DNA of 64,000 nt from Octopus vulgaris. Lineage: Eukaryota. The stretch spans positions 17,608,001 to 17,672,000 of the forward strand of contig OX597818.1 of NCBI GenBank assembly GCA_951406725.2. Reading direction: 5' to 3'. Numbering within the stretch: position 1 is the first letter of the stretch; each line of letters opens with the position of its first letter. A program made the position numbers and the translations under genes. This document shows, one piece after another, positions 7,350 to 54,215 of the stretch. Under the pieces are notes generated by a model. The model had not been told where the DNA came from. It did not search any database and saw only the letters and a program-made list of their open reading frames with translations.

Positions 7350-8505
7350 CCTACTATGAATTTCCTAATTAGTACTGGAGATGTTTCATACTCCTGTATT
7401 TGTCTGAGTGTTGGGTCTTTGGGTGCTTGGATGAAATGTGGATATCAAGTTGACCCAGGCTGTTTCCACGTTAGGTCTTGGCATGTTGGTAGAGTGTGGA
7501 GGACTGTTTTTTGTCATCATATTGTCTCAAATGGTCATTTAGTTTTTCTGTAATGCACCTAGATGTCTCCCCTATGTATGTCGTATTTATATCTTTACAA
7601 GCACCTTCTATGCATCTTATGCTGTAGACTACATTTCTAGTTCTACAGTTAATGCCAGGGCTAATCCTACATACGATGCAGTTATCATTGGTGCATATGG
7701 TATTCTCAAAGGGGTTCATTCTACATAATTGTGATCTGATGAAGTTCTCTGGCTTTTTCAACAAACTTAATGTTGAGTTTGGTCTCCTTCAGAGCTTTTC
7801 TAAATCTACAGGCTAGTTCTCCATGGGCTGTGGCCTCTACAAACATCACTCCTTGATATTTGTCAGTTTTATATGTGTTCACCCTGTTTGCTTTGTCACA
7901 AGCTCTTTGTATATCATATTCCAGTCGTTGTTTCTATATTTAGGGCAGGTACCACTGGTTTCATTACATATAATGTTATCTAACTTCTTTCTAGCACCCC
8001 TATATACTCGAATCCTATCTTTCTGATCATATCTGGAGAATTGCATGCGGTGCATGAAGTTCTGTACATGTTTCTTCATTTCATAGGGTTTGCTTAGTGG
8101 GGACACATTGTTCATTATCCTTACCAAGTCTGCTATCAGTATATTAATTTTCATGTTGTGTGACAAAGCTGAGTTCTTGTGAACAACATATTTTGAAGTT
8201 ATGGGTTTCATGTAATAGGAGTGGAGGAGCTGCACTCTGTTCACAGTCTCTAACCAAAGTTCAGTATCAAGGATGGGGAGTCTATTGTTGGGGTACCTAG
8301 TGGGGTAATTTATAGTTACCTTGATACTTTGGTGGATGAAATTAGCTACTTGCTGGATGCTCTCCATTATGTTCCTCTCAGTTTCTACATTACCGTTACT
8401 GGAGTTGGTCTTAACTAGGCTATCAATGTCATCTACATACCTACTGTAAAATAGAAGAGTTGTGGACTGTTCTGCTAAGGATTGCTTAAGTTTTTTGTCC
8501 CATCA
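7350..8505 (-). mobile_element. 5'-truncated Penelope-like retroelement (RT C-terminal half plus GIY-YIG endonuclease), decayed
   Basis: FYSRYVDDID near 8430; thumb region LPILD...YYMKP (ORF 7879-8367); C..C...NVVY...YIGETSR (ORF 7471-7764). Intronic and antisense to AP5Z1. Confidence 0.88.
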
Positions 8506-8990: not shown

Positions 8991-10997
8991 GTGAGCATAT
9001 CTCATTTACTAACTCAATGTTTCATAGCAACAGTCTACTGTCCCTGCCACTACATGATTAGCTACATTTATGTAATTGTATACACTTGTGCACACTCACA
9101 TACATACACTTAGACTAATTATGATACCTCCTGTGGAGTACATATATGCCTTATTACTGAGTGTATTATATTTATATAATATTTATATAATAACCACGGA
9201 GTGGTTGGCATTAGGAAGGGCATCCAGCTGTAGAAACACTGCCAGATCAGACTGGAGCCTGGTGCAGCCTCCTGGCTTCCCAGACCCCGGTCGAACCGTC
9301 CAACCCATGCTAGCAGGGAAAACAGACATTAAACGATGATGATGAATATATTATATTTGTATATCAGGCTTGGCTATGTGGTTAAGAAATTTTCTTCCCA
9401 ACCACATAGTTTCAGGTTCAATCCTACTGTATGGTACCTTGGGCAAGTGTCTTCTGCTATTGACCCAAGCTAACCAAAGCCTAGTAAATGGACTTGTGAG
9501 ACGAAAACTGTATGGAAGCCCGTTGTGTGTGTGTGTGTTTGTGTCTCCTTGTCTTGACATCACATAATAGTTGCAGATGGCTCTCACTGTCATACAAGCA
9601 GTGGTATTTATTTCCAATACTCTGCAAAAAATTTGTCTGGCTATAGGGAAATATTACCTTGCTTGGAAACAGGTAAGGGTTGGTGACAGGAAGGGCATCC
9701 AGACATAGGAAACTTGCATCAATAAAGACAATCTGACCCATACAAGCATGGAAAAGTGGATGCTTAAAACAATGATGATTATAATATGTGCTTATACATA
9801 CACATACATACACACACATACACATTTATCAACAATCCAGTTCCTTGGTGAATTCTTGGAGCAGCATTCATTGAGGAATTGGATCATTGGTAGATAATTG
9901 GAATTGAAAATTACCTAAAAACAGTATCCAGTCAGTATAATTGACACTGATTGATGATGATGGATTATTTCACTGTTTGCTCTCTGTGGTTCTATCTAGC
10001 CAGTTGGTGGCATCTTACATATTGATGTGTCTTGATTCTTAATGAATCTGTCAAACTAACATATATATTGAGACATTGCTGTACTCAAGAAGACCACAAC
10101 AGAATTGAGATCCTAAAACCAAGGTGCCACTCAAAAAGCATTAATGTGGGTGCTAGCGTCGCATAAAAAATACTGGTGCTAGTGCCACGTAAAAAAGCAC
10201 TGGTGCTGGTACCACATAAAAAGCACAGGTTCTGGTACCACATAAAAAGCACAGGTTCTGGTGCCACATAAAAAGCACAGGTTCTGGTGCCACATAAAAA
10301 GCACTGGTGATGATGCCACGTAAAAAGCACCCAGTACACCCTGTAAAGTAGTTAGCATTAGGAAGGGCATCCAGCCATAGAAACCAAACCAAAACAGACT
10401 ATGGAACCTGGTGCAGCCCCTGGTCTTGCCAGTTCCTGCCAAGCCATCCAACCCATGCCAGCATGGAAAACAGATATTAAATGATGATGATGAGATATAC
10501 ATAGATATATATACATACATACATACACTAATGCTTTATATTTATTGTTTTTGTATTGATTATGATAATTTTTACTATTAATATCAGCACTGCCTTTGTT
10601 ATTACCATATAACAACACTACTGCACCCATCTCTGCTCATGACCACCATCACCATACATCAACACTGCCACCACTATCACTGTACATTACCACTACTCCA
10701 CCACCACCTCCAAAACAACAGTAATTTTCAGCACTGTAACCATGACTACCTTCATACACCAAGAGCAGCTAAATCTCCCTTAAATCACACCCTTCAATCA
10801 CAAATACAGATGGCTCAATTGGAGATACATTGGGAAAAAAAGTCATGGAGAGAATCATGGCTGGAATGTCTTTGATTATGTAGCAACAACACACTTTTAT
10901 GTATCAACTACATATCGCCACCACCACCAGTATCAATGCTATCATCATCACCATCACCACCGTTCTCATAACACTCTGTTTTCTTTTTCTATTACAG

Positions 10998-12354: not shown

Positions 12355-12964
12355 GTAAAACAACTTTATTGTAATCGACACATATGGACACACGGACACA
12401 CACACAAACATATAATCTTACCATACTATATTGGCACTCCATCTGTTACAACAAGGGTTCCACTTGATCCAATCAACAGAACAGCCTGCACATGAAATTA
12501 ACAAACATATATACCCTTAATGTAGTTCTCAGGGAGATTCATCATGACACAGGGTGTAACAAGGTTTGTCCTTTCAAATACAGATACAACTCATTTTTGT
12601 CAACTGTGTGAACTGGAACATGACAAAAAGTGTCTTGCTCAAGGACACAGCTCGTTGCCAGGAATCGAACTCACAACCTTATAACCATCAGCTAAATACT
12701 CTAACCACTGAGCCATGTGCTTTTGATCTAATATAACAATGTTGTAGCATATGTGTGTATATACTCTTTTACTTGTTTCAGTCATTTGACTGTGGCCATG
12801 CTGGAGCACCGCCTTTAGTCGAGCAAATCGACCCCGGGACTTATTCTTTGTAAGCCCAGTACTTATTCTATCGGTATCTTTTGCCGAACCGCTAAGTTAC
12901 GGTGACATAAACACACCAGCATTGGTTGTCAAGTGATGTTGGAGGGACAAACACTGACACACAA

Positions 12965-13010
<46 letters not shown>

Positions 13011-13284
13011 GACGGGCTTCTTTCAGTTTCCGTCTGCCAAATCCACTCACAAGGCTTTGGTCGACCCGAGGCTATAGTAGAAGACAGTTGCCCAAAGTGC
13101 CACGCATTGGGACTGAACCTGGAACCATGTGGTTGGTAAACAAGCTACTTACCACACAGCCACTCCTATGTGAAACTCAACCACTGTTATTGTCATTCTT
13201 GAAATAATTGTTGCCACCACCATTGCTCTACTGTTATTGCTGTTGCCATTTTTGTTATCAGAATATTCTTGAATTATTGGTCAG

Positions 13285-14237: not shown

Positions 14238-15389
14238 GGGTGTAAGAGACGAACTCTATAACTGGTTAAAATCCTTTATTTTCGGCCGAAAAGAGGCTGT
14301 CACAGTTCTAGGACAGCACTCTTCGCCCTATGAGATGACATCTGGTGTGCCGCAGGAACTGTTCTTGGCCCCCTTTTATTTGTTGCATATGTTAATGACA
14401 TAGATGCCAACTTAAAGAATGCCACAGTGCTGAAATATGCAGATGACATCAAGCTGTACCTCGAAATAAAGAGGTCAAATCATGTAAACTATGGATCTCT
14501 ATTGCAAGCAGACCTGGACACAATGCAGCAGTGGATCATGGACTGGCAACTCAAGCTGGCTGTGGACAAATGTACCACCATGCATTTTGGGAGGTGAAAC
14601 CCAGCGTCCACCTACTCCCTCCACAACACTAGTCTCAAAAAGTCTTCAAGTGAACGTGACCTGGGTGTTATTGTCGACAGTGATTTGCGTTGGACAAAAC
14701 ACATCGCTAAAATTGTCAAGAAGGCTGAGGGTATCTTGGCATCACTCACCAAATCCTTTGTGAGCCGCTCTCCGGCTATCTATCTGCGGCTTTATATAGC
14801 TATGGTAAGACCTCACCTGGAATTTGCATCACCGGTCTGGAACCCCTATCTTGCCCAGGACATCAATCGTCTGGAAGCTGTTCAGCGACGTGCAACCAAA
14901 AGAATACCCTCCATCAGGCATTTGCCATATCCTGAACGCCTTACTTCCCTGGGCATGGACACATTGAAACTCCGACGTCTGGCAGCTGACTTGGCAGACA
15001 CCCATAAAATTATCAACCATCACACAAACAATAACTCTGAGCACCTCTTCAAATTCCACCCATCTAACACCCGTGGACATAATTACAAAGTAAGAAAACA
15101 GCACAGCTCCCATGACTTCAGGAAACATTTTTTCACGCTGAGAGTTGCTGAAGCATGGAACAAACTGCCGGCATCGGTTGTTAGTTGTCGGAGCACTGCA
15201 TCCTTCAAAACTTCCATGCTTCCTGAGATTCGCCAACACTACACTTGATTTTCTCCCCTCCATACACACACAAGCATGTATCTGACTCATACACTGTTCA
15301 CTTTCCAGACATTTCTACATTACTGCATGTACTTTATATGCACTTTCTGACAAGTTGTGGTGCACCTGAGCACTGTATACAATAATTTC

Positions 15390-15780: not shown

Positions 15781-15784
<4 letters not shown>

Positions 15785-16116
15785 TAAATAATTAGGGTTC
15801 AGCAAAGATTTGCTTTACCACATACCGAAGTTTAGAAATAGCAGCCAAAAAACGTTACTTCTTCCTCTCTGCCTGTGTGGATTGTTTTCAAGTATTTTGG
15901 TTTTTCTGGGAGTCCCTTTTTAAAGTAAAAGAAATAGCTAACGTTTTTTGGCTGCTATTTCTAAACTTTGGTATGTGGTAAAGCAAATCTTTGCTGAACC
16001 CTAATTATTTAGTATTACTTAAGTTTACCATGAAATGGTCCTTTTTTCATGCTGAATTCTACTTGGTGAAATTATTGATTACTTCTTAATTAATTAATTT
16101 TACCCTTTGTTATTAT

Positions 16117-16766: not shown

Positions 16767-18583
16767 GTAAGCTTTACTTTAGTCTTCATATTAAAACTAT
16801 CATACCTACATTGCACAAGAGTAAAGCTTAGTAAAGGTTAGGTTGCAGGCAAATATATCTTTTGCAAGGGTTTGGCTAGTGAGTCTAGAAATATACACAG
16901 CTCATCATGAACTAATCACATCTTTCTCCAACACCTTATTTTATTGCTCTAGCCATTGACTTCCTAGCTGTACCTTTTTAGCCTAGTAACCCTTTTATTT
17001 CTGGGGTTCTTTTTTCATCAAATGTATGTTTCCAGTGCTACCATAAATTTAACTGTGAAAGTGCTTGGCCCAATTGTTAGCATGTTGGACTCATGATTGT
17101 AAGACAGTGGTTTTAATCGCTGGACTGGATGGTGCATTGTATTCTTGAGCAAAACACTTCATTTCATGTAGCTCCAGATCATTCAGCTGGCAAAAATGAG
17201 TGATCCTACGATGGAGTGGTCTCCTCTTCAGAGGAAATGTTATTATCTAGGTCATTTATACACCATAGAAACCAAGCAACCAGCCTTATGAGTCTTAGGA
17301 CTTAAGACAGTAATTTTCATAGCTTTGACCCTTTTACATTGAAACCAACCATATCCAGCCCAAATATTTTACTTGTGTTATGTTCAAGCCAGCCAGATCT
17401 AGCCTCTTACATCTACCCTACAATATCGTTCTAAAAATAAACAATCACGTCTTCAAGATAACGATGATTAATTCAGAACAATGTGAATAAATAAGCCTTT
17501 TATTTGACAGAGCAACCTGAATACCAAAGGGTTAAAAAATATATATTTTCTCTTTGAACAACTTTGCTTAAAAGCTGAAGATTCTCATTTCTGCACATTA
17601 TATGAACTTAGCAAAATTATCTACAAATCACAGTCATGTGTTCAGATTTCACTCTAACCATTGCATTGCATTACTGTGTTTCTTGTTAATGAGCACAAGT
17701 CTACCTAAATTAGTTTGCCTGAGTCACTTTAGACTAATGAGACTCAGTTTTTTTTTGACAGTATGATCCACTGGAGATATAAAAAATTTCTGATGTCCTT
17801 CACTTGGAATGTTATTTAAAAAACTAGTTTAAAGTTTAATAATTTTGAAAAAATCAAAGTTTTATTAATCAAACTTTATGTATAGCAAAATTTGAATAGC
17901 ATATGTTTCAAGATGCACAAGTATTATTAGTATGTTGTTATATTTTGGGATGGTCTTTTTTTTTTTGCCAAATAAGAACACATGCTATTTGGCAAAAAAA
18001 ATTACTGTCCCTAAAGAGAACATTTGCTCACAGACAACATGCCATACATTTTTATCGTGACAAAGATTATTTTTAAAAATGCTATTTAAAGTATAAGTAT
18101 TATACCAAGTTTAATTAATTTATTTCTAAGAAAAATAATTACTCTTCTAAGCACTCAGTATCTCTTTGATATTCATTGACCCTTGAGAGCTGACTATGCC
18201 TTCTCTTTCTCTTATGCAAGGGAGTTACCATTCTGGCTGAGGGATACTGGATTAACCATTTCATATTATAGATATTTTTTAATGTTGGTATTAAAAGGCT
18301 GCAAGCTGGTAGAATCTTTACCACACAGGGCTAAATGTTTAGTGGCATTTTGTCTGTCTTTACATTCTGAGTTCAAATACTGCCATGGTCAACTTTGTCT
18401 TTCATCATTTCAGGGTCAATAAAATAAGTACCATTTAAGCACTAGAGTCAATGTAATCAAGTATTGTCCTCCCCTAAAATTTCAGGCATTATGCCTGCAG
18501 CAAAAAGTATTATTTTCTGTATTAATTTTCCATTTTTCTCTCTCTCAGAATTTAAACCAACTGCTTTTTTTTTTTTTTTCCAG

Positions 18584-19549: not shown

Positions 19550-19754
19550 AGTTATTATTCTTAAACAAGAATGTTGTTGGCAGACTTCGAAGTTTCAACC
19601 AGCTATGCCATTGTAGGCAGGTCAAAACTTCAAAGTCACTGTCAGCAACATTCTTGTTTAAAAATAATAAATTTGTTCTCTAGAGACATATAAAGTAACC
19701 CACCAGATTAATGTAAAATTATATTTATTTTGATTGAACATAAAGACAAACATT

Positions 19755-19783: not shown

Positions 19784-19785
<2 letters not shown>

Positions 19786-20190
19786 CAAAATAAGCAACAA
19801 GAATGACTCCGGTAATTTGGTACGATCGTTTTGTACTACATCATTTTATTAAATGTTGTAAGTATTAAAATGCTGAGCACTCATCAGCCAATTATAGAGG
19901 TTTTCCATTAATACAAAAATTTTCATATCAAATGATATGAAAATTTTTGTATTAATGGAAAACCTCTATAATTGGCTGATGGGTGCTCAGCATTTTAAAA
20001 CTGTTGTAATACTTACAACATTTAATAAAATGATGTAGTACGAAATGATTGTACCAAATTACCGGAGTCATTCTTGTTGCTTATTTTGATTATAATCACC
20101 CCACGGATTTTTATGGATAATACCATACAGAATTCTGGTGCATCTAAATTAAGTACCATATTCATTTGAATCTAAATTTTTGCTGAACTT
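19784..20190 (+). mobile_element. Shorter fold-back copy of the 36-kb element family
   Basis: Same arm and tail sequence as 36090-37094, hairpin centred on a 2-nt loop (19931-19932), (TA)n flank. Both hammerhead cores are mutated (CUGAUGG on +; CAAAA instead of CGAAA on -). Confidence 0.85.
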
Positions 20191-28105: not shown

Positions 28106-30670
28106 CCTCCTTCTTTCCTGAGCATCCAGTAATACTATATTTGTTCCATGTCCTCGCGTTGTTGTGTTTTTTTGTGCTTTCTTGTTTGGATTAACTATAT
28201 ATATATATATACACACACACATATCTTTTATCTTTTTTGTTCTATGTGTTTCAGTATTAGACTACAGCCATACTGGAGCATGCCTTCAAGAATTTTATTC
28301 AAATGATCAGACCCCAGTACTTATCTTTTTCATCTGGTACTTATTCTATTAGTCTCTTTTGCTGAACCACAAAGTTACCAGGATATAATCACACTAACAC
28401 TGGTTGTCACCAACAATGGTGAGGGACAAACACAGATATACAAAAAAACATGTGTGCACACACACACACACACACACTCACACATGCACACACACATACA
28501 TACACACATACACACACATATACATATATCTACAACAGGCTTCTTTGAGTTCCCATCTACCAAGTCCACTCACAAGGCTTTGGTTGAACCAAGGCTATAG
28601 TAGAAGACACCTGTCCAAGGTGTCACACAGTGGGACTGAACTTAGAACCATGCAGTTGGGAAGCAAATTCCTTACCACATAGCTACACCTGCACTTATAC
28701 ACAACAACGTGTGTAAATTGATTACTATTGGATAGTTCCAATTAAATAAGTCCAGAAGTTAGGTTAAATATACATACATGCATAAATACCATGAATTCCC
28801 ATTCTACAAACTGGCTAACAATTTCGTGAATACTTTACCAGGCAACACTGGGTAGTAAGTCTCGTTTTATATAAAAATAATGGTTTAGCAAACAACAACA
28901 CATACCTAGTTTTTTCAACCAAATCCCACTCACAAAATAATGACCAGTCTGAGACCATAGTGACTCACTTCTGACTGAACCTAGAGCTACATAGTACTTA
29001 ACTACACAGCCATTCCTGAACCCATTAAGTTTGTGATATAAGGAAAAAAAGAGGTTCACATATATCTATGTGTGTGTGTGTCTTTGTGTCTGTGTTTGTT
29101 CCTCACCACCATCATCACCACCTGTCAACCGGTGCTGGTGTGTTTAGATCCTCGTAACTTAGCAACGCAGCAAAAGAGAACAATAGAATAAGAACTGCAC
29201 ACTTTTATTCATTTCCACATCTAAGCTACTCAACTCTCATCATTTTTATTGCATCAGAATATACATAAACATGTATAATGTGTGTGTGTAGAGAGAGAGA
29301 GAGAAGAGAGAGAAATATATATTTATATCTATAGACATGTATATGTGTAGATATACATATCTACAGATACACATACAAACACATACATGTACGCACACAC
29401 CCATTTTAGTTTTAGTCTTATTTCATCCCTCTCTTCATGGAGCAATGTGCAAGGAGAGATCGCCATTTAGTGCAGTTCCATGCCATATCATGAACTTGCT
29501 CTTATACCAGGCCATTATCTGCCTGATCCTCCTCAATTAGGTATTACAGGTCTGTTTTACCTCCTGTAATCCTTCCCTAGCTCCCAATTGAGAGAAGATT
29601 TCACTGGTTTCTTCACAGACAGGTATAGCATATGGCTAAGCTTCATGCACTGTCTCACAGTGATAGTATTCTACAAGTTACTCAGCCCCGCCTTTCCATC
29701 ACTTCATTTGTGATGTGGTCACACCAACAAATATTCAGTGTGCCTCTCAGGCAACATCTACACAAAACATCTGCAGTTGCATAGATTCTGCTAGTCTCAG
29801 CAACAGCAGCTCAAAGCTTAGTCTTCAAATCAACAATAAAATAATGAAAGTGATGGTTATTGGTGAGTAACAGCAGCGATAAATCAGCTGAAAAGGTAGA
29901 TACTGGAGATCATTGGTTCAAACCAAGGTAATAGCAATGTGTGAAGGTGCATAGCTTAGTGATTAGGGTATTTGGTTCATGATTGCAAGATCACAAGTTC
30001 GATTCCCTGTGGTGCGTTGTGTCCACGAGCAAGACACTTTATTTCACTCAGCTGGCAAAAATGAGTGGTACTTGTAGTGCAAAGGATCAGCCATCTCACT
30101 CTGTGTCACACTGAATCTCAGAGAATTACATTAAGGGTACGCGTGTCTGTGGAGTGCTCAGCCACATGCATGTTAATTTCGCGAGCAGGCAGTTCCATTG
30201 ATTGGATCAACTGGAACCCTTGTCATCATAAGCAATGGAGTGCCAATAACTATGAAAGGAATGAATTCTACTTCTTACAGAACTAAAACGAATGGGCCAA
30301 TTAAATCGGCGCATATAGAAAGGAAAGATCCCCAGACTACTTAACACATGTAGAACTGCATTTGGTGATTGATGGCAACTATCATCACTTATTCAGAGGA
30401 GTTAACAGAAGTCAGAAGAATGCATGCAATGAACCCAAAAAATATTTTCCTTGCCTTAAGAGAAACACCATGGCTGTTGTGGGGGTGGCAGCGACGGTGC
30501 TGTTGATTACTTAATCTGTATATGTAAAAGACCTTTAAAACGTGACCAGCTCATTTTCTCATATATCAGAAACTAAGCTGCATTGTCCATTATACCCAGC
30601 ATTATTTAAACCAGTAGAGTTTTATTTGAGCTAACTTTATTACATGAAAAATGTTAATTTCCTTACTTAC

Positions 30671-32094: not shown

Positions 32095-33382
32095 CAGGGG
32101 TTGGACAAAATAATGGAAACACCTTAAAATTTCAAACAAATTAATTTTAATATGAGGTAGGACTGCCTTTGGCAGTAGTTACAGCTTGAATTCTACGAGG
32201 TATGGACTCATACAAAGTTTGAATTGTTTCCAAAGGAATTTTTGTCCATTCTTCAGCTAGAACAGTCTCCAGTTCTTGTAGTGATGATGGTGGAGGCTAT
32301 CGACTCTTTATTTGTTTTTCTAAAATGCACCATAAATGTTCAATGATATTGAGATCTGGGGGCTGTAGTGGCCAGATAAGATGTTCAACTTCACAAAAAT
32401 GTTCCTCGTGCCATTTAGTAACCACTTTATCTGTGTGAATTGGTGCATTATCATCCTGAAAGATTGCGTTTCCCTCCGGAAACAGTTCCACAACCATAGG
32501 ATGAATTTGATCAGATAAATGCTTAAACAGTCTTCACTATTAATTCTGCCATGAAGCGAAACCATTGGGCCGGCGAATATCCAAGATACAGCCCCCCCCC
32601 CAAAAAAAAATCATCACAGATCCTCCACCATGTTTAACAGTTGGAAGTAGGCAGCCTGGGTCAAATGCTTCTTTTGGCTGTCTCCACACGTATACTCGGC
32701 CGATGGTCGGAAATAAGGTAAAGGATGACTCGTCCGAGAAGATAAGATTCTTCTACTGCTCTAGGGACCAATTCTATAGGTTTTTTACTCCACTCTAAAC
32801 GCTTTGCAACGTTTGTTTTTGAAAGCAGCGGTCTTCTGATTGCAGCCCTCCCGTGAAATCCGACTTTGTGCAGCTCGCGGCGAACAGCTTTTGTGGAAAC
32901 TGGGTTCTCGAGGTGGTTATTAAGCTCTGAAGTAATTTTGGGAGCAGTACGCTTGTGATCCTTTCTAACAATTCGCGTAAGAGTCCGACGGTCCTTATCT
33001 GAAAGTTTTGGTTTTCTGTCGTTGTTTTGTTTCGACGAGGAGGTTTTCCCTCTTTCTCAAAAGCTGTCATTACTTTCGAGACAGTACTTCTTGATACACC
33101 AAACATTTCGGCTGCTTTCGTTACGCAAGAGCCTGCCATCCGAGCACCAACAGTTTGATCTCTTTGAAAGTTCGATAGATCTGTCATTTTAAGGAATTTT
33201 AATTACCTTTTTCTGATGGTATTTGAAAAGAAACAGCAATTTTAGCAAAACATATTAAGCAACATTAATAATAAACTTTAAAAAAAAAAACATAAAAATA
33301 AACAAGCTTTTGACGGTTTTATAGATATTTCAAAATTATGATGCTATGATCTAGATGTTTCCATTATTTTGTCCAACCCCCG
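32095..33382 (-). mobile_element. Full-length but frameshifted Tc1-like transposon
   Basis: ~27-bp TIRs CAGGGGTTGGACAAAATAATGGAAACA with TA target duplication; HTH region (ORF 32795-33187), FSDES, QDDNAPIH and WP.Q.PDLN.IEHLW. Confidence 0.93.
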
Positions 33383-34238: not shown

Positions 34239-35116
34239 CTAAAAAATAAAAAAAAGTAAATATATAAAGTTGATGGAATGCCCAAAATTTGAGTGTATAT
34301 TCTTGCACTCGAAATCATATTCTTCTATGATTTACTCTTTTACTCTCTTTTTTAATCTTTTGCTTGTTTCAGTCATTTGACTGCGGCCATGCTGGAACAC
34401 CACCTTTTAGTCGAGCAAATCGACCCCAGGACTTATTCTTTGTAAGGCTAGTACTTATTCTATCGGTCTGTTTTGTCGAGTCGCTAAGTTACGGGGACGT
34501 AAACACTCCAGCCTCGGTTGTCAAGCGATGTTGGAGGGACAAACACAGACACACAGACATATACACACGCACACATACATATATAATTGTTATGCGTGTT
34601 GTTTGTTGTATTGGGAAAGACAACCAGTTGAAAACCATTGTTATTATTTAATGTGTTTATTGACGTTGCTTGATTACACGGACGACGTTAGCGTAGTGAT
34701 ACATTGTTTACTTAACACACAGTTTGTATTGTTCACTAACAAATAGTGCCAAGAGTAGGGAGTAGTTTGGCAAACGCAAACACACAGATATGAATGTGTA
34801 ACAATAATATATACGACGGGCTTCTTTCAGTTTCCGCCTACCAAATCCACTCACAAGGCTTTGGTCGGCCCGAGGCTATAGTAGAAGACATTTACCCAAG
34901 CTGCCACGCAGTGGGACTGAACCCGGAACCATGTGTTTGGTAAGCAAGCTACTTACCACACAGCCACTTCTGCGCCTATTTCTTAGTAATATCAATTTAT
35001 ACCGGAAACTATATGTAATGAATATAATAAAATTTTTTAGCTTATATTTATTTTGTAAACAAATAATACAATATTACATAGACACTTTATAAGCATTTCA
35101 TAATGTTTTTCTGTTT

Positions 35117-35338: not shown

Positions 35339-35699
35339 TTTTCTTTTCTGGAAACTCGCCGTGAGCTAGCAGCTGAGGGCTCGCGGACCGACACCGGTCC
35401 GCGGACCACCACTCTGAGTAGTACTGTCCTAGAAGACATCTAGAAAAGAGCCACCCGATTGATCTAGTCCGTCAAAAGCATACTCTAGCTTCTTGTTCAC
35501 AGGTACATGTGGTTCCTTTCTCTCTCTCCCCATCTCTCTCCCTCTCACTCTCTCTTCTCTCTCCATCTACCTTTTCTACTGTGACTACAATGGAATCTGC
35601 TAATCGGAGCTGGTTAGACTCATGACGTCTCCACTCAGAAATACCTGATTCTCTCGAAAAATCATCTTTGTTGTGTTCACTCCGCGTCACACCTTCGGG

Positions 35700-35751
<52 letters not shown>

Positions 35752-36051
35752 CCGTGTGTGTGGTTTAGTGTTTCTGTCTGTTTATTGGTTAGCTGTTCAT
35801 ATTTATTGAATGGGTTGTTTTCTGGCTTCTTCATTGATTGTTTGTGCTATTTTGTGATATGGTGTTGCGACTGTAGATAGGATGATGTGATATTATTTTG
35901 TTTAGAATTTGTGGATGAGTTCGTGCTGGCGTATTCTTTTTTTCAATTTCTCTTCTTGTGATTGTGCGCGCGCACGTGTAAGATTTTAGATAAATACTTT
36001 TAAGAAAGTTTGTTTATTGAGTTATTTGAAGCAAAATAATTAAGGGCATAT

Positions 36052-36095
<44 letters not shown>

Positions 36096-36122
36096 CAAAA
36101 TAAGCAACAAGAATGACTCCGG

Positions 36123-36215
36123 TAATTTGGTACGATCGTTTCGTACTACATCATTTTATTAAATGTTGTAAGTATTACAACAGTTTTAAAATGCTGAGCA
36201 CTCATCAGCCAATTA
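36123..36215 (-). ncRNA. Minimal type-I hammerhead ribozyme (PLE type), apparently intact
   Basis: The - strand reads taattgg-CUGAUGA-gugcu...(long stem II)...aguac-GAAA-C-GAUC-GUA-ccaaauua: both core boxes, paired stems I and II, palindromic loop III and a GUA cleavage triplet. Confidence 0.85.
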
Positions 36216-36873
36216 TAGAGGTTTTCCATTAATACAAAAATTTTCAAATCAAGTGGCAACATTATAGAGAAGGTAGATATATAGACAAAGATGTGGATTT
36301 AAATTTTGAGAACATTTGAGGTAGTGGAGCCCATCAACTGACTGACTAAGATTCAGTTGTTCCAGACTACTGTAAGGTTCTGAGAGTGAAGAACAAATGA
36401 AAGGAGACAATAAAGATTTTCTAATTATAGAAATGGGATAAACCCTATGCACATCATCACAACTGTTGTGATGATGTGCATAGGGTTTGTAAGGTCTCTG
36501 CATTCTCTGTGAATGTTATTGTGACCTCTTGACATTGACCTAGTTCTCCTAACGCTGAATCTGTTCATCAAATAGTAGTAATTGACATCTAGTTGTGACA
36601 ATGTTGTTTTCTACATAAATTCCTTATATGGAGCTCTGACATCTCCTTTACCCCATTTCTATAATTAGAAAATCTTTATTGTCTCCTTTCATTTGTTCTT
36701 CACTCTCAGAACCTTACAGTAGTCTGGAACAACTGAATCTTAGTCAGTCAGTTGATGGGCTCCACTACCTCAAATGTTCTCAAAATTTAAATCCACATCT
36801 TTGTCTATATATCTACCTTCTCTATAATGTTGCCACTTGATTTGAAAATTTTTGTATTAATGGAAAACCTCTA

Positions 36874-36966
36874 TAATTGGCTGATGAGTGCTCAGCATTT
36901 TAAAACTGTTGTAATACTTACAACATTTAATAAAATGATGTAGTACGAAACGACCGTACAAAATTA
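36874..36966 (+). ncRNA. Hammerhead ribozyme motif, second arm copy
   Basis: CUGAUGA (36881-36887), GAAA (36947-36950) and GUA are intact, but loop III is GACC and stem I has a mismatch next to the core. Confidence 0.7.
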
Positions 36967-37092
36967 CCGGAGTCATTCTTGTTGCTTATTTTGATTATAA
37001 TCACCCCACAGATTTTTATGGATAACACCATACAGAATTCTGGTGCATCTAAATTAAGTACCATATTCATTTGAATCTAAATTTTTGCTGAA

Positions 37093-37135
<43 letters not shown>

Positions 37136-37525
37136 TGTGTGTGTGTGTGTGTGTGTGTGAACTAAGAGAAATTATTTGATAACTCAGTGTGGCCATGGCT
37201 TTAGACAACAAAGACGGATAAAAGACTGAGAACCCTACAAGATACGTTATTTATTTGTTGAAATTATCTTCGCTTCAGAACATAAAACGAATGCCTTGTG
37301 ATAGTTGCAACTAACTCCGAAAGAGGAAGTGATATAATCCCAGGAATCAAGTATTTTTCGAAACTGACCTACCATAAAGGAAAAGACAGTTTTTTTTTAT
37401 GGTCTTGTGTAATTCGTATAATAGAAATAAAAATCAGCTACGAGAAATAATTCAGTGTGGTTAGTAACTCCGTATAATTTTTGTTAGTGCAAACCACCAC
37501 CAGTTTCCTCTGACTCTGTGTTTAC

Positions 37526-37643
37526 CGTTGGGTTCAGACTTGATTCTATTTTGGTAAAAATCCAGATTCGGATGTGATACTTTGTTGAGAGCGTATAATA
37601 ATTTATTGTCCTCTAGATTTGTCCCGCAATGCATTATCAGAGG
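37526..37643 (-). CDS. OGFr-domain gene exon
   Basis: Pyrimidine-rich acceptor tctcacag, donor gtaaac. PLIMHCGTNLEDNKLLYALNKVSHPNLDFYQNRIKSEPN(G) matches OGFR PNLSFYRNEIRFLPNG. Confidence 0.9.
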
Positions 37644-38807
37644 CTGTGAGACAGAGAGAAAGAGATAGAAAAATGTGACATAAATAAATAAAGCATAACT
37701 GGCTTGATAACAATATTTTTTGGATTTTAAATAAGAAGTACAATTTGAGAGAATGTTAACATATGTGGCAATGGATATTTGCCAGACAGTAAACTTTTAT
37801 TTGAAGAGATGAGTGACAGGTTCCTTCAGCAGGCAAGCAGCCTATTAAAAAGGTTCTCATTCCAGGATTTGGTCAATGCAAGATCCATCTGTTTGCAGAA
37901 TAGAATGTTGTATTGATAGCCATTATGTTTAAGAGACATAAGACTTGTCAATCCGCCTCATGGTCCCAGTGGGCAAAATGGAAAAGGCTTTAGTCCCGGA
38001 AGATGGTGAGAGAGACGCGCTGGAACAGCCACTCTGACTCACGGGGCTCGACTTGAGGAAAGTCATCTCTTCCCTGATAACAGTATACAGGTATGTAGTC
38101 TGAGAGCCAAGAACGTCGGAGGTCTCCTTTCTGATGGAAAGAAAACCTTTGTTTTGCCTAATATTCGATATTATTTTTTTGCCCCTTATGTTAAGGAATA
38201 TCCTTTGACGTTACACCTCTAACCAGGAGGTCTTGCAACAAGTAAACAATGCCGAATGTTGAGTCTCCCCCACTGAAATTACAGTTGTACTGGGTGGAAC
38301 ATGTGATACCTACGGGAGACAATAAAACCTCCACGACTATACAACCAGCTAGAATTTGGAAGCTATCGAAGAAAGAATGCGAAACTCCGTTATAAGGATG
38401 TCATCAAAAGCTGAAATAGGTGGCCCGATAACGAAATCTTTTTTGCCACGAGAGTTCTGGACGGCAGTAATGAACTCATTTGCATACAGTCAATCAGAGC
38501 TTACCTTGAAAATCCACATACTGCTACAGTACAGCCAGTCAGGAATAGAATGGTGTACACTACTCTGTGAGTACAGCATAGCAAGTCTCACATAAACACC
38601 ACATTCCCCTCTACACAATCCTCGTAGATCAATTGAGCACCATCTCTATATGGAGCTAACATTAGGTGCCTATGCTCAGACTGAGATTAGCAATACTGCA
38701 TGTACCCATTAATATATGCAAGGAGAGCGCAATACCACACAACGCCAAATTGATTACGATGTTTCCAGACCAACATCAACATTTTAAATTAGGAAACTAT
38801 CCTCATA

Positions 38808-39205
38808 GGCGCAGGAGTGGCTGTGTGGTAAGTAGCTTGCTAACCAACTACATGGTTCCGGGTTCAGTCCCACTGCGTGGCATCTTGGGCAAGTGTCTTC
38901 TGCTATAGCCCCGGGCCGACCAATGTCTTGTGAGTGAATTTGGTAGACGGAAACTGAAAGAAGCCTGTCGTATATATGTATATATGTGTGTATGTGTGTG
39001 TGTTTGTGTGTCTATGTTTGTCCCTCTAGCATTGCTTGACAACCGATGCTGGTGTGTTTACGTCCCCGTCACTTAGCGGTTCGGCAAAAGAGACCGATAG
39101 AATAAGTACTGGTCTTACAAAGAATAAGTCCCGGGGTCGAATTGCTCGATTAAAGGCAGTGCTCCAGCATGGCCGCAGTCAAATGACTGAAACAAGTAAA
39201 AGAGA
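38808..39205 (+). mobile_element. tRNA-derived SINE family A (representative copy)
   Basis: Head ggcgcaggagtggctgtgtggtaag...ggttcagtccc, central (TG)n, tail cagtcaaatgactgaaacaagtaaaag. Other full or partial copies near 2000-2410, 9365, 12763-13168, 13570, 14085, 19320, 20798, 23855, 28240-28695, 34330-34977, 53306-53715, 58910. Confidence 0.85.
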
Positions 39206-47543: not shown

Positions 47544-47927
47544 GAGAGACCTCGGCACTACTTAAATACAGAGGTCCCGATGCATTTACGTAACGGTATG
47601 TTTTTACAGTGCGCACTCATTAGGGAGTTAGGGTTAGTTTTAGGATTAGTTTGGGTTAGAGATAGGGTTAGTTAAGGTTAGTGTTAGTTTTAGGGTTAGT
47701 TAGGGTTAGGGTTAATTTTAGGATTATATAGGGTTAGAGTTAGGGTAAGTTAAGGTTAGTGTTAGTTTTAGGGTTAGTTAGGGTTAGGGTTAGAGTTAGG
47801 GTTAGGGTTAGTTTTAGGGTTAGTTAGGGTTAGGGTTAGGGTTAGTTTTAGGATTAGTTTTTAGGGTTGGGGTTAGGGTCACGTAGATGCGTCGGGACCT
47901 CTGTATTTAAATAGTACTGAGATCCCC
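47544..47927. mobile_element. Inverted-repeat element enclosing a degenerate (TTAGGG)n array
   Basis: ~50-bp imperfect inverted repeats (47544-47594, 47878-47927) around a ~260-bp telomere-like tract. Confidence 0.75.
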
Positions 47928-49379: not shown

Positions 49380-49900
49380 AAGAAAACCTATCCAGGTTGG
49401 AGGAGTAGCAAAGTAAGTGAGAGTCCTCTTTGAAATTTCGGAGTGTAATATGTTGCTTATGCATGCAAGGAGAGAAGGAAAGAAGGTAACATCCCTAGTA
49501 TTTAAAATATTAACTTTTGATTGGATGATGTTTAGTTTTTCAGTGTTGCAAAGCTTACATCTTTTACCCTGTCCCCTGTATTTATTGGCTTTAGTGATAA
49601 TGATCCGAGTTATAGGGGAGTTGCTACACCCGTTTCTTTCAGTATCCATACCATATTGGATATATATATCGTGTGCTTTTTAGTTTTGTCTCTAAATGAC
49701 GCCAAATGCAGTGTATATCTTTCTTTGAAGGAGTTCCATGTCGGTCCGATATATGTATTTGTTTCTCCATTAAAATCCGTGATATTGGCCTTGTATAGAT
49801 GTGCTTTTTCTTGGCACATCTTATTCAAGGGACAACTGTCCGGGAAAATACAATTACATTGTCTTTTGAAAATATTCCTAGCATTGTTATTGTGGTTGAG
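49380..49900 (-). mobile_element. Penelope-like element GIY-YIG endonuclease fragment
   Basis: CNC...CPLNKMC, LYKA...TYIG.T..SFKERY..H..SF and CKLCNTEK motifs across frameshifted ORFs 49610-49828 and 49374-49649. Confidence 0.82.
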
Positions 49901-50724
49901 TATAATTGGGGCAACAACTATAGCTGACTCTAACCGTATTTCTATTGAAGATATTTTGGTATTTGTGTGAGTGTGGGGAGTGGTTATCTATTATTTTTAG
50001 GAATTTTCTAGCTATGTTAGTGGCTACATTCGTGCCATTCGGGGGGAATCTACATGTTGAGTGGTAGAAATCTATCTTCTGATCGAATTAAGTAAACTAT
50101 TTTCATTGGTTTTCTTTAATTGTTGATGCTATCTCTCACGGATACGGTCTGTTACATCGTCTTTCGGTGATATGGCAGGATTTACATCGTCTTTCGGTGA
50201 TATGGCAGGATTTGCTCAGAGTCGGACAAGACAGATAGCCCAAGGCATTTCCCGTTCGCCAATCTACAACCAAGGGTTGCTAGTTTTTCTATCGATCTCA
50301 AAAGAATGAAAGGCAAAGTTGACTCTAGCAGGGTTTGATCCCAGAGTGCAGAGAATCGGAAACTAATACTACGAGGCATTTTATTCATACTCTAATGACT
50401 CTTCCAGTTCGCCCTCTTGACCTCTAGATAAATATAGCAGATATGGTGGGTAAGCCATGTGTTCACCTTTTCAGCAAGACACCTGCTCCTCTCTCTCTCT
50501 ATCATACTTTCTTATTCCTCCAGTCTATATCCCACTCTTATCTTACAGGTACATGGCGACATCACTAGTGTTGGTGCCATGTAAAAACAATATACTCTGT
50601 TCATTGGCTGGTATTAAGAAGGCCATCCAGTAGTAGAAACCATGCCAAAGCAGACATAGAACCTGGCTCGTCTCTTCTAGCCAAACAGTCCAGCTCATGC
50701 CAGCATGGTTAAAGGGACGTTAAT

Positions 50725-52073: not shown

Positions 52074-54215
52074 CAATCAGAATGTGCTGCAGAGTAGAAG
52101 GCCCAGCCGCTATATGTGTAGTAGAAAGGATCACTTAAAAAATTTTATCAGAAAGAAGAAAAAAAGCGAAAGAGAATGCAGTTGCCGTCATTACATACAA
52201 TATTTATAGTAACAACACACAAAGATAAAGATCTTAGATGCAGCTGTCGTTATTTTCAAAGCACCACCAATCGCAATGTTCGAAGTGTACCATTGTCGGA
52301 ATGTTCAGAGTGGAAACAAGTAAAATGTTGCATTGTATTTTATCATGAAACCACATAGATGGACGTCTTACACTTTTCCTAAGTATTTGCTCTTTGAGCA
52401 AGTTACTTTTTTATAAATAACAATGAGTTCGTCATTGCAGAAACTTTTATTTTGTTTGCATTTTTCAAAATGGCAAATTTCACTGACGCCCACTCGCTTC
52501 AGCATTTGCGGTTTTACACCCAGTGCAATGCATTTTTTCGACGCCTTAGATAAATTTTCAGCATCTAAAGATGAAAGCGATCTTCCATTCAAGAGGGATA
52601 AAAAAATTGTGGGAATAATTTTAGTATACTTGGAAGTATGCATGAATGTTAATCAGAGTTTCTAGCGTTCCTTCATACCCTTTTCAAGGACAATACTTAC
52701 ACTTTTTTGTTCCTAAGAAAACATTTTCACCTTCACTTTTTCTTTCATGAGGAAACTGACAGTAAGACAGAAAGAAGCTATTATAGTTTCATGTTTTTTT
52801 TAAATATCTTTTATTATCTTTTCACACTTCTGAAATATTTTTGCACTGTAAATTTTATTCTCACTTCACATTTATGAAACGAAATCGAAAATTTGAAGCG
52901 ACAAAACAAAAGGATACAGACAATGATGAAGAAAGAACAAAGACGAAAAATATGAAAAAGTTTAAGACAAAACCAAATGTTAAGAAGAGCCATTATGACT
53001 CAGCACGAATGTGAAAGTTATTGTACCTGCTGTATCAATGTAAAAGCTAGAAGATACAAAGACAGCACGGACGGTGAACAATGAGTTTGTTATGTGGTAA
53101 CATCGAGAGAAAGTGCGACAAAATAACATGAACGAAGCACAGCATGAAGAATACCAAGAACTTCAAAGAAGAAATCGAGTAGAACACGAACGAAGAAGAG
53201 TTGCTGAATTTGAGAACTGTTCATACAAAAGAACAAAGCCAGAAGCAGTTTGGTGCGGTTTGATAAACCAGAATGAAAATCTGTATTTTATCTTTTTCAA
53301 TATTAGGCGTAGGTGTGGCCATTTGGAAAGAGGGTTGCTTTCCAACGAAACGGTTCCGGGTCCAATCCCACCGCGAGGCGCCTTGCGCAAATGGCTTCTA
53401 CAATAGGCTCGGGCCGGCCAAAGCCTTTTGAGCGGATTTGGTAGACGGAAACTGAAAGAAATCCATCGCATGTGTGTGTGCGTTTGTGTGTGTCTTTGCG
53501 ACTGTGTTTACTCCCCACCACCACCGCCACTACTGCTTGATAATCATTGTTGGTGTGTTCACGTCCTCGCGTCTTAGCGGCTCGGCAAAAGAGACCGATA
53601 GAACATGTACCAGACTTAAAATGAATAAGTACTGGGGTCGATTCGTTCGACTTGAATTCTTCAAGATGATGCCCCAGCATGGTTGCAGTCTAATGACTGA
53701 AGCAAGTGAACGATAAACCTCAAACCTTTGTCTAACTCAATGTTTCTCAGTCATTTTTTTACCTATGGTCTCTTTGATTCCTATTTTACTCGGATGGACC
53801 CTCCTGGTGATTCAACGTTTCAAAATCCTCACCATTCAATGTTTCAAAAACCCTATCATATTTTTATAACTAAATATTATTAAGAATTGTATAAAATAAT
53901 TTTTTAAGGTATTTTGTGTATTGTAGAAATATTACCGGTTTACTGCCGATAAATTTTGACATCAAAATCTTATGTGGACCCTCAAGGGGCCATACGGACT
54001 CCTGTTGAGAACCACTAGTCTAGCCCATTATCATAAAAACGTTTAACATCGTGAAGCATGTTTATGAAACTAAGAAAATGGATCCTGATAGTAATTATGT
54101 AAGTATATTGCAATCCCAGTGAAAACATTGGTTTCAAATTTTGGCACAAGGCCAGCAATTTCAGGGGAGAGGGAAAGTCAGTTACATCGACCCCAGTGCT
54201 CAACTGGTACTTATT

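Follow-up and report, generated by a model that had tools for sequence, protein, structure and literature searches.

What kind of insertion folds back on itself at 36058-37128 of this Octopus vulgaris DNA, and could the hammerhead ribozyme that it appears to carry be a working one? We analyzed the whole 64-kb stretch (the window) together with public sequencing contigs, following up a preliminary description of the locus as a young fold-back retroelement. Our main reading, to which we give a probability of roughly three in four, is that the locus is a single insertion into (TA)n of the 3' end of an endonuclease-type Penelope-like element (PLE) that is abundant and probably Hydra-like or from another C-terminal GIY-YIG clade. 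By itself, such a single locus is an ordinary truncated transposon copy.

The locus is built around two inverted arms, 36090-36442 and 36647-36999, of 353 nt each; they are identical at 350 of 353 positions, the three mismatches falling at 36129/36960, 36135/36954, and 36438/36651, which bears out the near-identical arms of about 350 bp first reported. The 204 nt between them had been taken for a loop of about 200 bp; the interval is real, but it consists of family sequence rather than spacer, and the center of symmetry lies at 36464, inside the head-to-head junction at 36440-36488, a perfect 24-bp hairpin with a 1-nt loop. This centering on 36464 makes the element a head-to-head palindrome with 161 nt missing from its mirror arm. 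The missing segment, 36489-36649 (plus strand), is found in the direct copy only, is covered by family contigs in all four runs compared, and corresponds to a jump in the left (mirror) arm that shows TTT microhomology; an intron was rejected as its explanation, since the segment has a GT start but no AG end. At five positions within 36527-36608, the locus differs from nearly all compared contigs, with few such differences in the arms, which may reflect subfamily structure or arm-to-arm repair.

The direct copy, 36465-37094 (plus strand), is a 5'-truncated, non-coding 3' end of 630 nt. The left arm, 36090-36442 (minus strand), is an inverted, tail-less copy that starts at the element's inner end, equivalent to 36995-36999. 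The tail is present on one side only, at 37000-37094 (plus strand), where it measures 95 nt (about 95-99 nt) and opens with an AC-rich run; a conserved hairpin within it found no support, as z was -1.3 for the tail in its entirety and -2.1 for a local hairpin whose pairs 3 of 6 variants preserve. Target tracts of (TA)n lie to the left, at 36058-36093, where tract and arm end have a TATA microhomology as their overlap, and to the right, at 37095-37128. The 95-nt tail, the (TA)n flanks, and an inverted insertion within (TA)n were therefore all placed correctly in the preliminary description.

A second family member lies at 19785-20189 (plus strand) and consists of an inverted arm (19785-19930), a 2-nt loop (19931-19932), and a direct copy (19933-20189) that is 97% identical to the first copy over 257 nt. 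Its inner end and tail end are those of the 36090-37094 element, it has (TA)n on both sides, and its mirror arm carries an 11-nt deletion at a TAA microhomology. The two independent copies thus share their ends and their flanks and differ in fold-back point; the 3' end is fixed (37094 and 20189 correspond), and arm length varies from 353 nt to about 146 nt. In both insertions, which are the only two available for this comparison, both arms end at one base and the deletion lies in the mirror arm. A short imperfect palindrome at 19552-19670 is situated about 110 nt to the left of the second copy.

The earlier remark that no open reading frame (ORF) is visible holds for the full 630-nt element: all six frames are closed, with 11 to 19 stops each, the listed family variants touch 0 to 3 stops per frame, and codon-position bias is absent. 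Upstream of the ribozyme, non-coding sequence extends for at least 410 nt, and the 630-nt stretch is, judging from its sequence, a non-coding 3' end; plain 5' truncation could explain the absence of an ORF. Neither a reverse transcriptase (RT) nor a GIY-YIG domain is present in the 630-nt copy, and a protein search with the PLE remnant at 49.6-50.0 kb among the longer proteins gave 0 of 51 candidates. Endonuclease-bearing (EN+) PLEs have a single ORF for a telomerase-like RT and a GIY-YIG endonuclease. Four of six features of EN+ PLEs were found, namely a fixed 3' end with 5' truncation, an inverted head-to-head copy, a one-sided tail, and a sense hammerhead near the 3' end. The inverted, 5'-truncated head-to-head copy and the one-sided tail each occur in both window copies, and the hammerhead is recognized by sequence and folding only. 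No partial-tandem pLTR was seen in the 64-kb window. With these four features present, membership is probable; we consider it very likely that the element is PLE derived and would place it in the Hydra clade in particular only tentatively. The ends, the (TA)n flanks, the fold-back anatomy, and the modeled cofold described below agree with the original proposal of a Penelope-like retroelement end bearing a putative dimer-type hammerhead.

The window holds two further decayed PLE remnants. A decayed, frameshifted PLE remnant at 49480-50100 (minus strand) has a GIY-YIG-like portion and a CxCX5C linker; it resembles the Hydra clade when compared by eye with a published alignment and has no DNA similarity to the fold-back family; a further feature was flagged at 7380-8502 (minus strand). 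Other repeats are plentiful. At 15781-16015, next to (TA)n, there is a MITE-like element whose terminal inverted repeats are long and nearly perfect. A 15-mer in its repeat agrees in 14 of 15 bases with the final part of the fold-back family's tail, a resemblance (E 0.033) that is probably due to chance. An open frame of 216 aa at 14598-15248 (plus strand) carries what we take to be a motif of the RT end of a CR1/L2-type LINE, with no Pfam match. A frameshifted Tc1/mariner transposase remnant lies at 32661-33202 (minus strand; PF01498, E 2e-16), and a degenerate TTAGGG-type array at 47627-47878 is possibly an interstitial telomeric repeat. A dispersed, SINE-like repeat family of 200 to 400 nt with internal (CA)n occurs at 12764-13168, 28247-28700, 34353-34995, 38805-39204, 53287-53713, and elsewhere, and at least two more dispersed repeat families are found around 10255-10500 and 18295-18520.

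Part of the element was found in 20 of the 24 public runs listed, which carry four organism labels and come from nine studies. Four runs with three organism labels were compared over 36464-37094, and contigs matching this stretch numbered 4068 (run X1), 162, 2424, and 1320. Depth climbs toward the tail in all four, with Spearman coefficients of 0.91 to 0.96 in X1, X7, and X18 and 3'/5' median depth ratios of 31 to 105 (about 30- to 100-fold). Since summed contig depth gives no copy number and cannot rank gene parts, our reading is limited to which way the trend runs and to the number of distinct contigs, in the thousands; both are signs of an abundant, 5'-truncated family. Contigs that pass from the tail end into (TA)n number 29 in X1, 20 in X7, and 1 in X5. 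A change of strand was seen in 11 of the 15 joints listed (of 16); these joints are asymmetric, but contigs of this kind would probably have collapsed any symmetric joint. The contigs revealed no defined 5' end, and the two window copies stop at different points.

Identity to the locus in X1 spans a wide range, with 810 of 4068 contigs at 99% or more and 506 of 4068 under 90%, so activity appears to have been both recent and old. The description of the element as young holds for the copy at this locus, and the 97% identical second copy also speaks for recent activity, but old copies exist too. The family majority has the intact form of the left arm at 36954 (about 100% of depth) and 36960 (92 to 97%). 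Some contigs leave the element at 36974-36978 into other common sequence (9 in X1, 2 in X5, 11 in X7), which hints at a sister family or a diverged subfamily with the tail in common and offers a lead to an autonomous partner. Contig groups also exit at 37054 in X1, X5, and X7, and one low-depth X18 contig joins 37091 to 36964. In X5, one 149-nt contig covers the hammerhead with 0 differences and depth steps at 36970; neither was taken as evidence of expression, as this run is only guessed to be RNA. An exact-motif scan of metagenomes gave 0 loci, the motif spanning common family variants, and the two loci returned from metagenomes by a gapped hammerhead pattern (L001 and L002) are bacterial gene regions without the stems and were dismissed as chance matches.

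The left arm contains, on the minus strand at 36123-36215, what sequence and folding indicate to be an intact type I hammerhead with a full core and a three-way junction. Stem I is formed by 36215-36209 with 36130-36123 (7 pairs, one bulge); CUGAUGA follows at 36208-36202, stem II at 36201-36143, GAAA at 36142-36139, and a palindromic stem III, a self-complementary 8-mer from A15.1 to U16.1, at 36139-36132. The predicted cut follows the GUA triplet, with A17 at 36131, and falls between 36131 and 36130, where the preliminary description had put it. Core positions C3-A9, G12-A15, and U16-H17 are all present on 36215-36123, so this copy keeps every core position together with the G10.1-C11.1 pair and a perfect 8-nt palindrome, and every part named in the original account of a complete minus-strand hammerhead was located. 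The stem II that had been called unusually long (about 60 nt) measures 59 nt with 22 predicted pairs; its energy is -15.9 kcal/mol (z -3.7), and equally stable shuffles numbered 2 of 500.

A hammerhead descriptor run on both strands of the window returned 1 locus against a mean of 0.06 in 100 dinucleotide shuffles, none of which (0/100) gave a palindromic stem III of at least 8 nt. Model searching did not recover the ribozyme: Rfam gave no hammerhead match at E up to 10 on 35500-37700 (16 rows, hairpin-type chance matches) and 0 matches at gathering score across the whole window, the long stem II being a likely reason for the miss. The other window copies are damaged, leaving 1 of 4 hammerheads intact. 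In the right arm (36874-36966, plus strand), the palindrome is broken at 36954 and the second stem I pair at 36960; in the 19785-20189 element, one hammerhead has A9 changed to G and has lost the palindrome, and the other has G12 changed to A and an 11-nt deletion in stem II.

In the best fold of the monomer, the core pairs with the palindrome; stem III would have 2 pairs, and the 15.2-16.2 pair has a probability of 0.001. Two left-arm copies, when cofolded, have as their minimum a double hammerhead with both stems I and II, unpaired cores, and an 8-bp intermolecular stem III (-48.8 versus 2 x -21.0 kcal/mol), and none of the three damaged copies (3/3) gave this structure. The energy gained on dimerization is unremarkable, as it was equaled by 35 of 180 permutations of the 6-nt insert. 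We lean slightly toward the view that the family form of the hammerhead cleaves as a dimer. Variation within the family gives mixed signs: across the four near-identical window copies, two-sided changes were found in 0 of 28 pairs, and the 40 of 144 variant rows listed included no variant at the 12 core positions, with 0.76 expected by chance (not significant). Among the same rows, six variants fall inside the ribozyme, of which 2 keep a pair, 3 break a pair (G10.1 included), and 1 is unpaired, the pair-breaking call depending on the register chosen in our analysis. Stem II contains a degenerate copy of the stem III box, matched in 463 of 20,000 shuffles (post hoc) and by alignment in 299 of 5,000; as a sign that stem II arose by internal duplication, this is weak.

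These observations fit a scheme in which the RT/GIY-YIG protein of a full-length copy would nick (TA)n and prime cDNA at the tail end (37094). Synthesis would stop early, at 36464 here and at the equivalent of 36838 in the second copy. The mirror copy could arise if the same RNA were primed once more, at the inner site (36995-36999), or by snap-back copying; either route would leave head-to-head arms, a loop of 1 to 2 nt, and a tail on one side only, after which microhomology jumps would shorten the mirror arm. Published work describes comparable steps. In the anole PLE, the protein cleaves both strands of AT-rich DNA and extends each of them, and reverse transcription starts at two sites bracketing the tail (PMC11167929); such two-site initiation would yield one direct copy with a tail and one mirror copy without it, the arrangement found at 36090-37094. 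Self-priming was proposed earlier for palindromic junctions, and palindromes at inverted junctions and microhomology deletion were described in PLEs (PMC3846280), as were an inverted 5'-truncated copy, an optional tail, and a (TA)n bias (PMC8557442).

The ribozyme, in the same scheme, would not fold alone, its stem III having 2 pairs and its core mispairing with it; two copies would pair via their 8-nt palindromes, and each would cleave the other at GUA. This mutual cutting would probably be slow or helped by an element protein and would process tandem or read-through RNA. A palindromic helix III, dimer use, and weak cleavage in vitro are reported for PLE hammerheads in PMC4209133, and PMC11167929 states that the anole PLE hammerhead needs protein and that its mutants leave insertion in vitro unaffected. 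At the present locus, a modeled transcript across both arms has the ribozyme core buried in the 350-bp duplex, so the locus copy is probably inert as a ribozyme.

Two other explanations of the fold-back itself strike us as very improbable. A MITE or foldback DNA transposon that has long inverted repeats at its termini and inserted at TA would account for the long near-perfect arms, the lack of an ORF, and the TA flanks, but the inverted repeat is not terminal, having the 95-nt tail beyond it; we rejected this class because of that tail, the arms that vary between copies, a center that is palindromic in internal sequence, and the strongly polar depth. Perfect palindromes with loops of 1 to 2 nt are also a familiar kind of sequencing or assembly artifact, arising as hairpin reads or amplification chimeras. 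An artifact is hard to reconcile with arms that differ by point changes and deletions, with element-specific boundaries at two separate loci, and with strand-switch joints in independent runs.

The remaining alternatives accept the PLE connection and concern what kind of element this is. It is possible, although we do not favor it, that the copies belong, as the preliminary description suggested, to an ORF-less, ribozyme-bearing, non-autonomous family, which would have its own fixed 5' end and be mobilized in trans by a PLE sharing only its tail. Non-autonomous PLE derivatives are described in PMC8557442 and bioRxiv 10.64898/2026.07.22.740005, and the ORF-less 630 nt, a depth that is roughly flat over 36486-36640 in X1, X7, and X18, and the contig exits at 36974-36978, as if from a sister family with only the tail in common, all point the same way. 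Against it, 5' truncation alone accounts for the missing ORF, head-to-tail arrays are absent from the window, and instead of a fixed 5' end we see window copies that stop differently and 196 X1 contigs that overrun an end (either one) of the compared stretch. We think it rather unlikely that the element is PLE derived with a hammerhead that is a relic, its long stem II the scar of an internal fold-back duplication, and that it has spread without cleavage. The indifference of anole PLE insertion in vitro to hammerhead mutants (PMC11167929) would fit such a relic, as would the degenerate box copy within stem II, the common variants that break pairs in the register used, and the fact that no short loop 2 would remain for the usual loop 1-loop 2 contact. 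However, the left-arm core, G10.1-C11.1, and the 8-nt palindrome are intact, with the family majority agreeing at the two positions checked, and the duplication signal is weak; moreover, the G10.1-to-U change matches natural Hydra-clade hammerheads with U at both 10.1 and 11.1, and a U-U pair at 10.1/11.1 is tolerated (PMC3088659).

The layout, including the palindromic junction, the tail, and the microhomology deletion, is already published for PLEs; what is new is the predicted 59-nt stem II, outside the published search descriptors examined, and a tail of about 95-99 nt. No publication on the fold-back family was found in the literature searched, which included few subscription journals and did not extend to Repbase or Dfam, where it may be cataloged, and the phrase "long stem II" was absent from papers among the matches listed. 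We judge it unlikely on present evidence that a hammerhead with a 59-nt stem II works as a dimer in an animal PLE family of many copies and recent activity; if it were true, some PLE families recorded as hammerhead-less or as having "half cores" (Naiads) may hide such ribozymes. An active ribozyme would also widen the structural range of PLE hammerheads, would mean that searches assuming a short stem II undercount them, and would bear on whether PLEs need the ribozyme or it is only a passenger. A family in which head-to-head copies are numerous and recent lends itself to studying how PLEs make inverted insertions and tails, and many symmetric fold-backs would permit a genome-scale test of double priming on one RNA versus snap-back synthesis. 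A transcript crossing both arms would be a source of long double-stranded RNA.

Several groups of known elements share part of this anatomy, and we compared the locus with each. Animal non-LTR retrozymes (PMC7229834; bioRxiv 10.64898/2026.07.22.740005) are likewise non-coding, with a type I hammerhead and a link to PLE pLTRs. They form head-to-tail tandem units giving circular RNA, whereas the copies here are 5'-truncated and head-to-head; a tandem non-LTR retrozyme was rejected, as both window copies are head-to-head. Naiad PLEs (N-terminal GIY-YIG) resemble the element in their (TA)n target, inverted 5'-truncated copies, and long non-coding 3' ends. Naiads are described as lacking canonical hammerheads, some having "half cores" with two boxes 35 to 50 nt apart, and the short hammerhead core motif was absent from the supplement holding the 3' parts of octopus Naiads. 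Naiad_Obim, Naiad_Ovul, Naiad_Omin, and Hydra-1_Obim were set aside as parents, showing no likeness (by eye only), and the Hydra-1_Obim hammerhead differs in sequence from that of the fold-back element.

The ribozyme itself resembles the metazoan PLE hammerheads of Cervera and De la Pena 2014 (PMC4209133) in being type I with a full core, G10.1-C11.1, a palindromic helix III, and predicted dimer use. Their descriptor caps stem II at 7 bp and the loop at 10 nt, compared with 22 pairs over 59 nt here, and unlike those hammerheads, the present one has no extra base between 9 and 10.1; the search in PMC8557442 limited the core spacer to 17 nt. Precedent for a long stem II among PLEs nevertheless exists in the plant elements PLE-X1_sMoe and PLE-X1_sTam, with stem II regions of about 48 to 52 nt (File S2, PMC8557442). 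These are endonuclease-less spike moss elements, marked as deviating, that have a large loop in place of a long helix.

Hydra-clade PLEs, with a C-terminal GIY-YIG and the motifs RWK, DKT, and CxCX5C but no CCHH (Penelope-13_HM, Hydra-2_Amil, Hydra-1_Obim; Craig et al. 2021, PMC8557442), share with the locus the (TA)n target, which occurs in other clades and is thus not diagnostic of Hydra, and a type I hammerhead in sense orientation close to the 3' end, its stem III short and self-complementary; an inverted 5'-truncated copy is reported for Penelope-13_HM. From stem I to the element ends, we count 29-33 and 128 nt, and these distances fall within the two groups among 24 Hydra-clade consensuses, whose ends lie beyond stem I by 25-42 nt in 10 cases, 58-148 nt in 13, and 350 nt in 1, assuming that the tabulated position and size include 20-nt flanks (one entry checked by eye). 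In this spacing, the element comes nearest to the Hydra clade. Hydra rows in File S2 have a stem II of about 10 to 24 nt as opposed to 59 nt here, and because this short stem II is lacking we have not filed the element in the Hydra clade; the non-coding sequence upstream of the ribozyme also exceeds that at the Hydra-2_Amil 3' end (by eye).

Penelope/Poseidon PLEs of Adineta vaga and Anolis (PMC3846280, PMC11167929) join their copies in a similar way. Their pLTR and tail include the ORF start, their tails measure 30 to 40 nt compared with about 95-99 nt here, and the fold-back element is without a readable target-site duplication. Like it, they show head-to-head copies, a palindromic junction, a one-sided tail, and microhomology deletion, and the two sites of RT initiation that bracket their tail (PMC11167929) would correspond to the tail end and the inner end at this locus.
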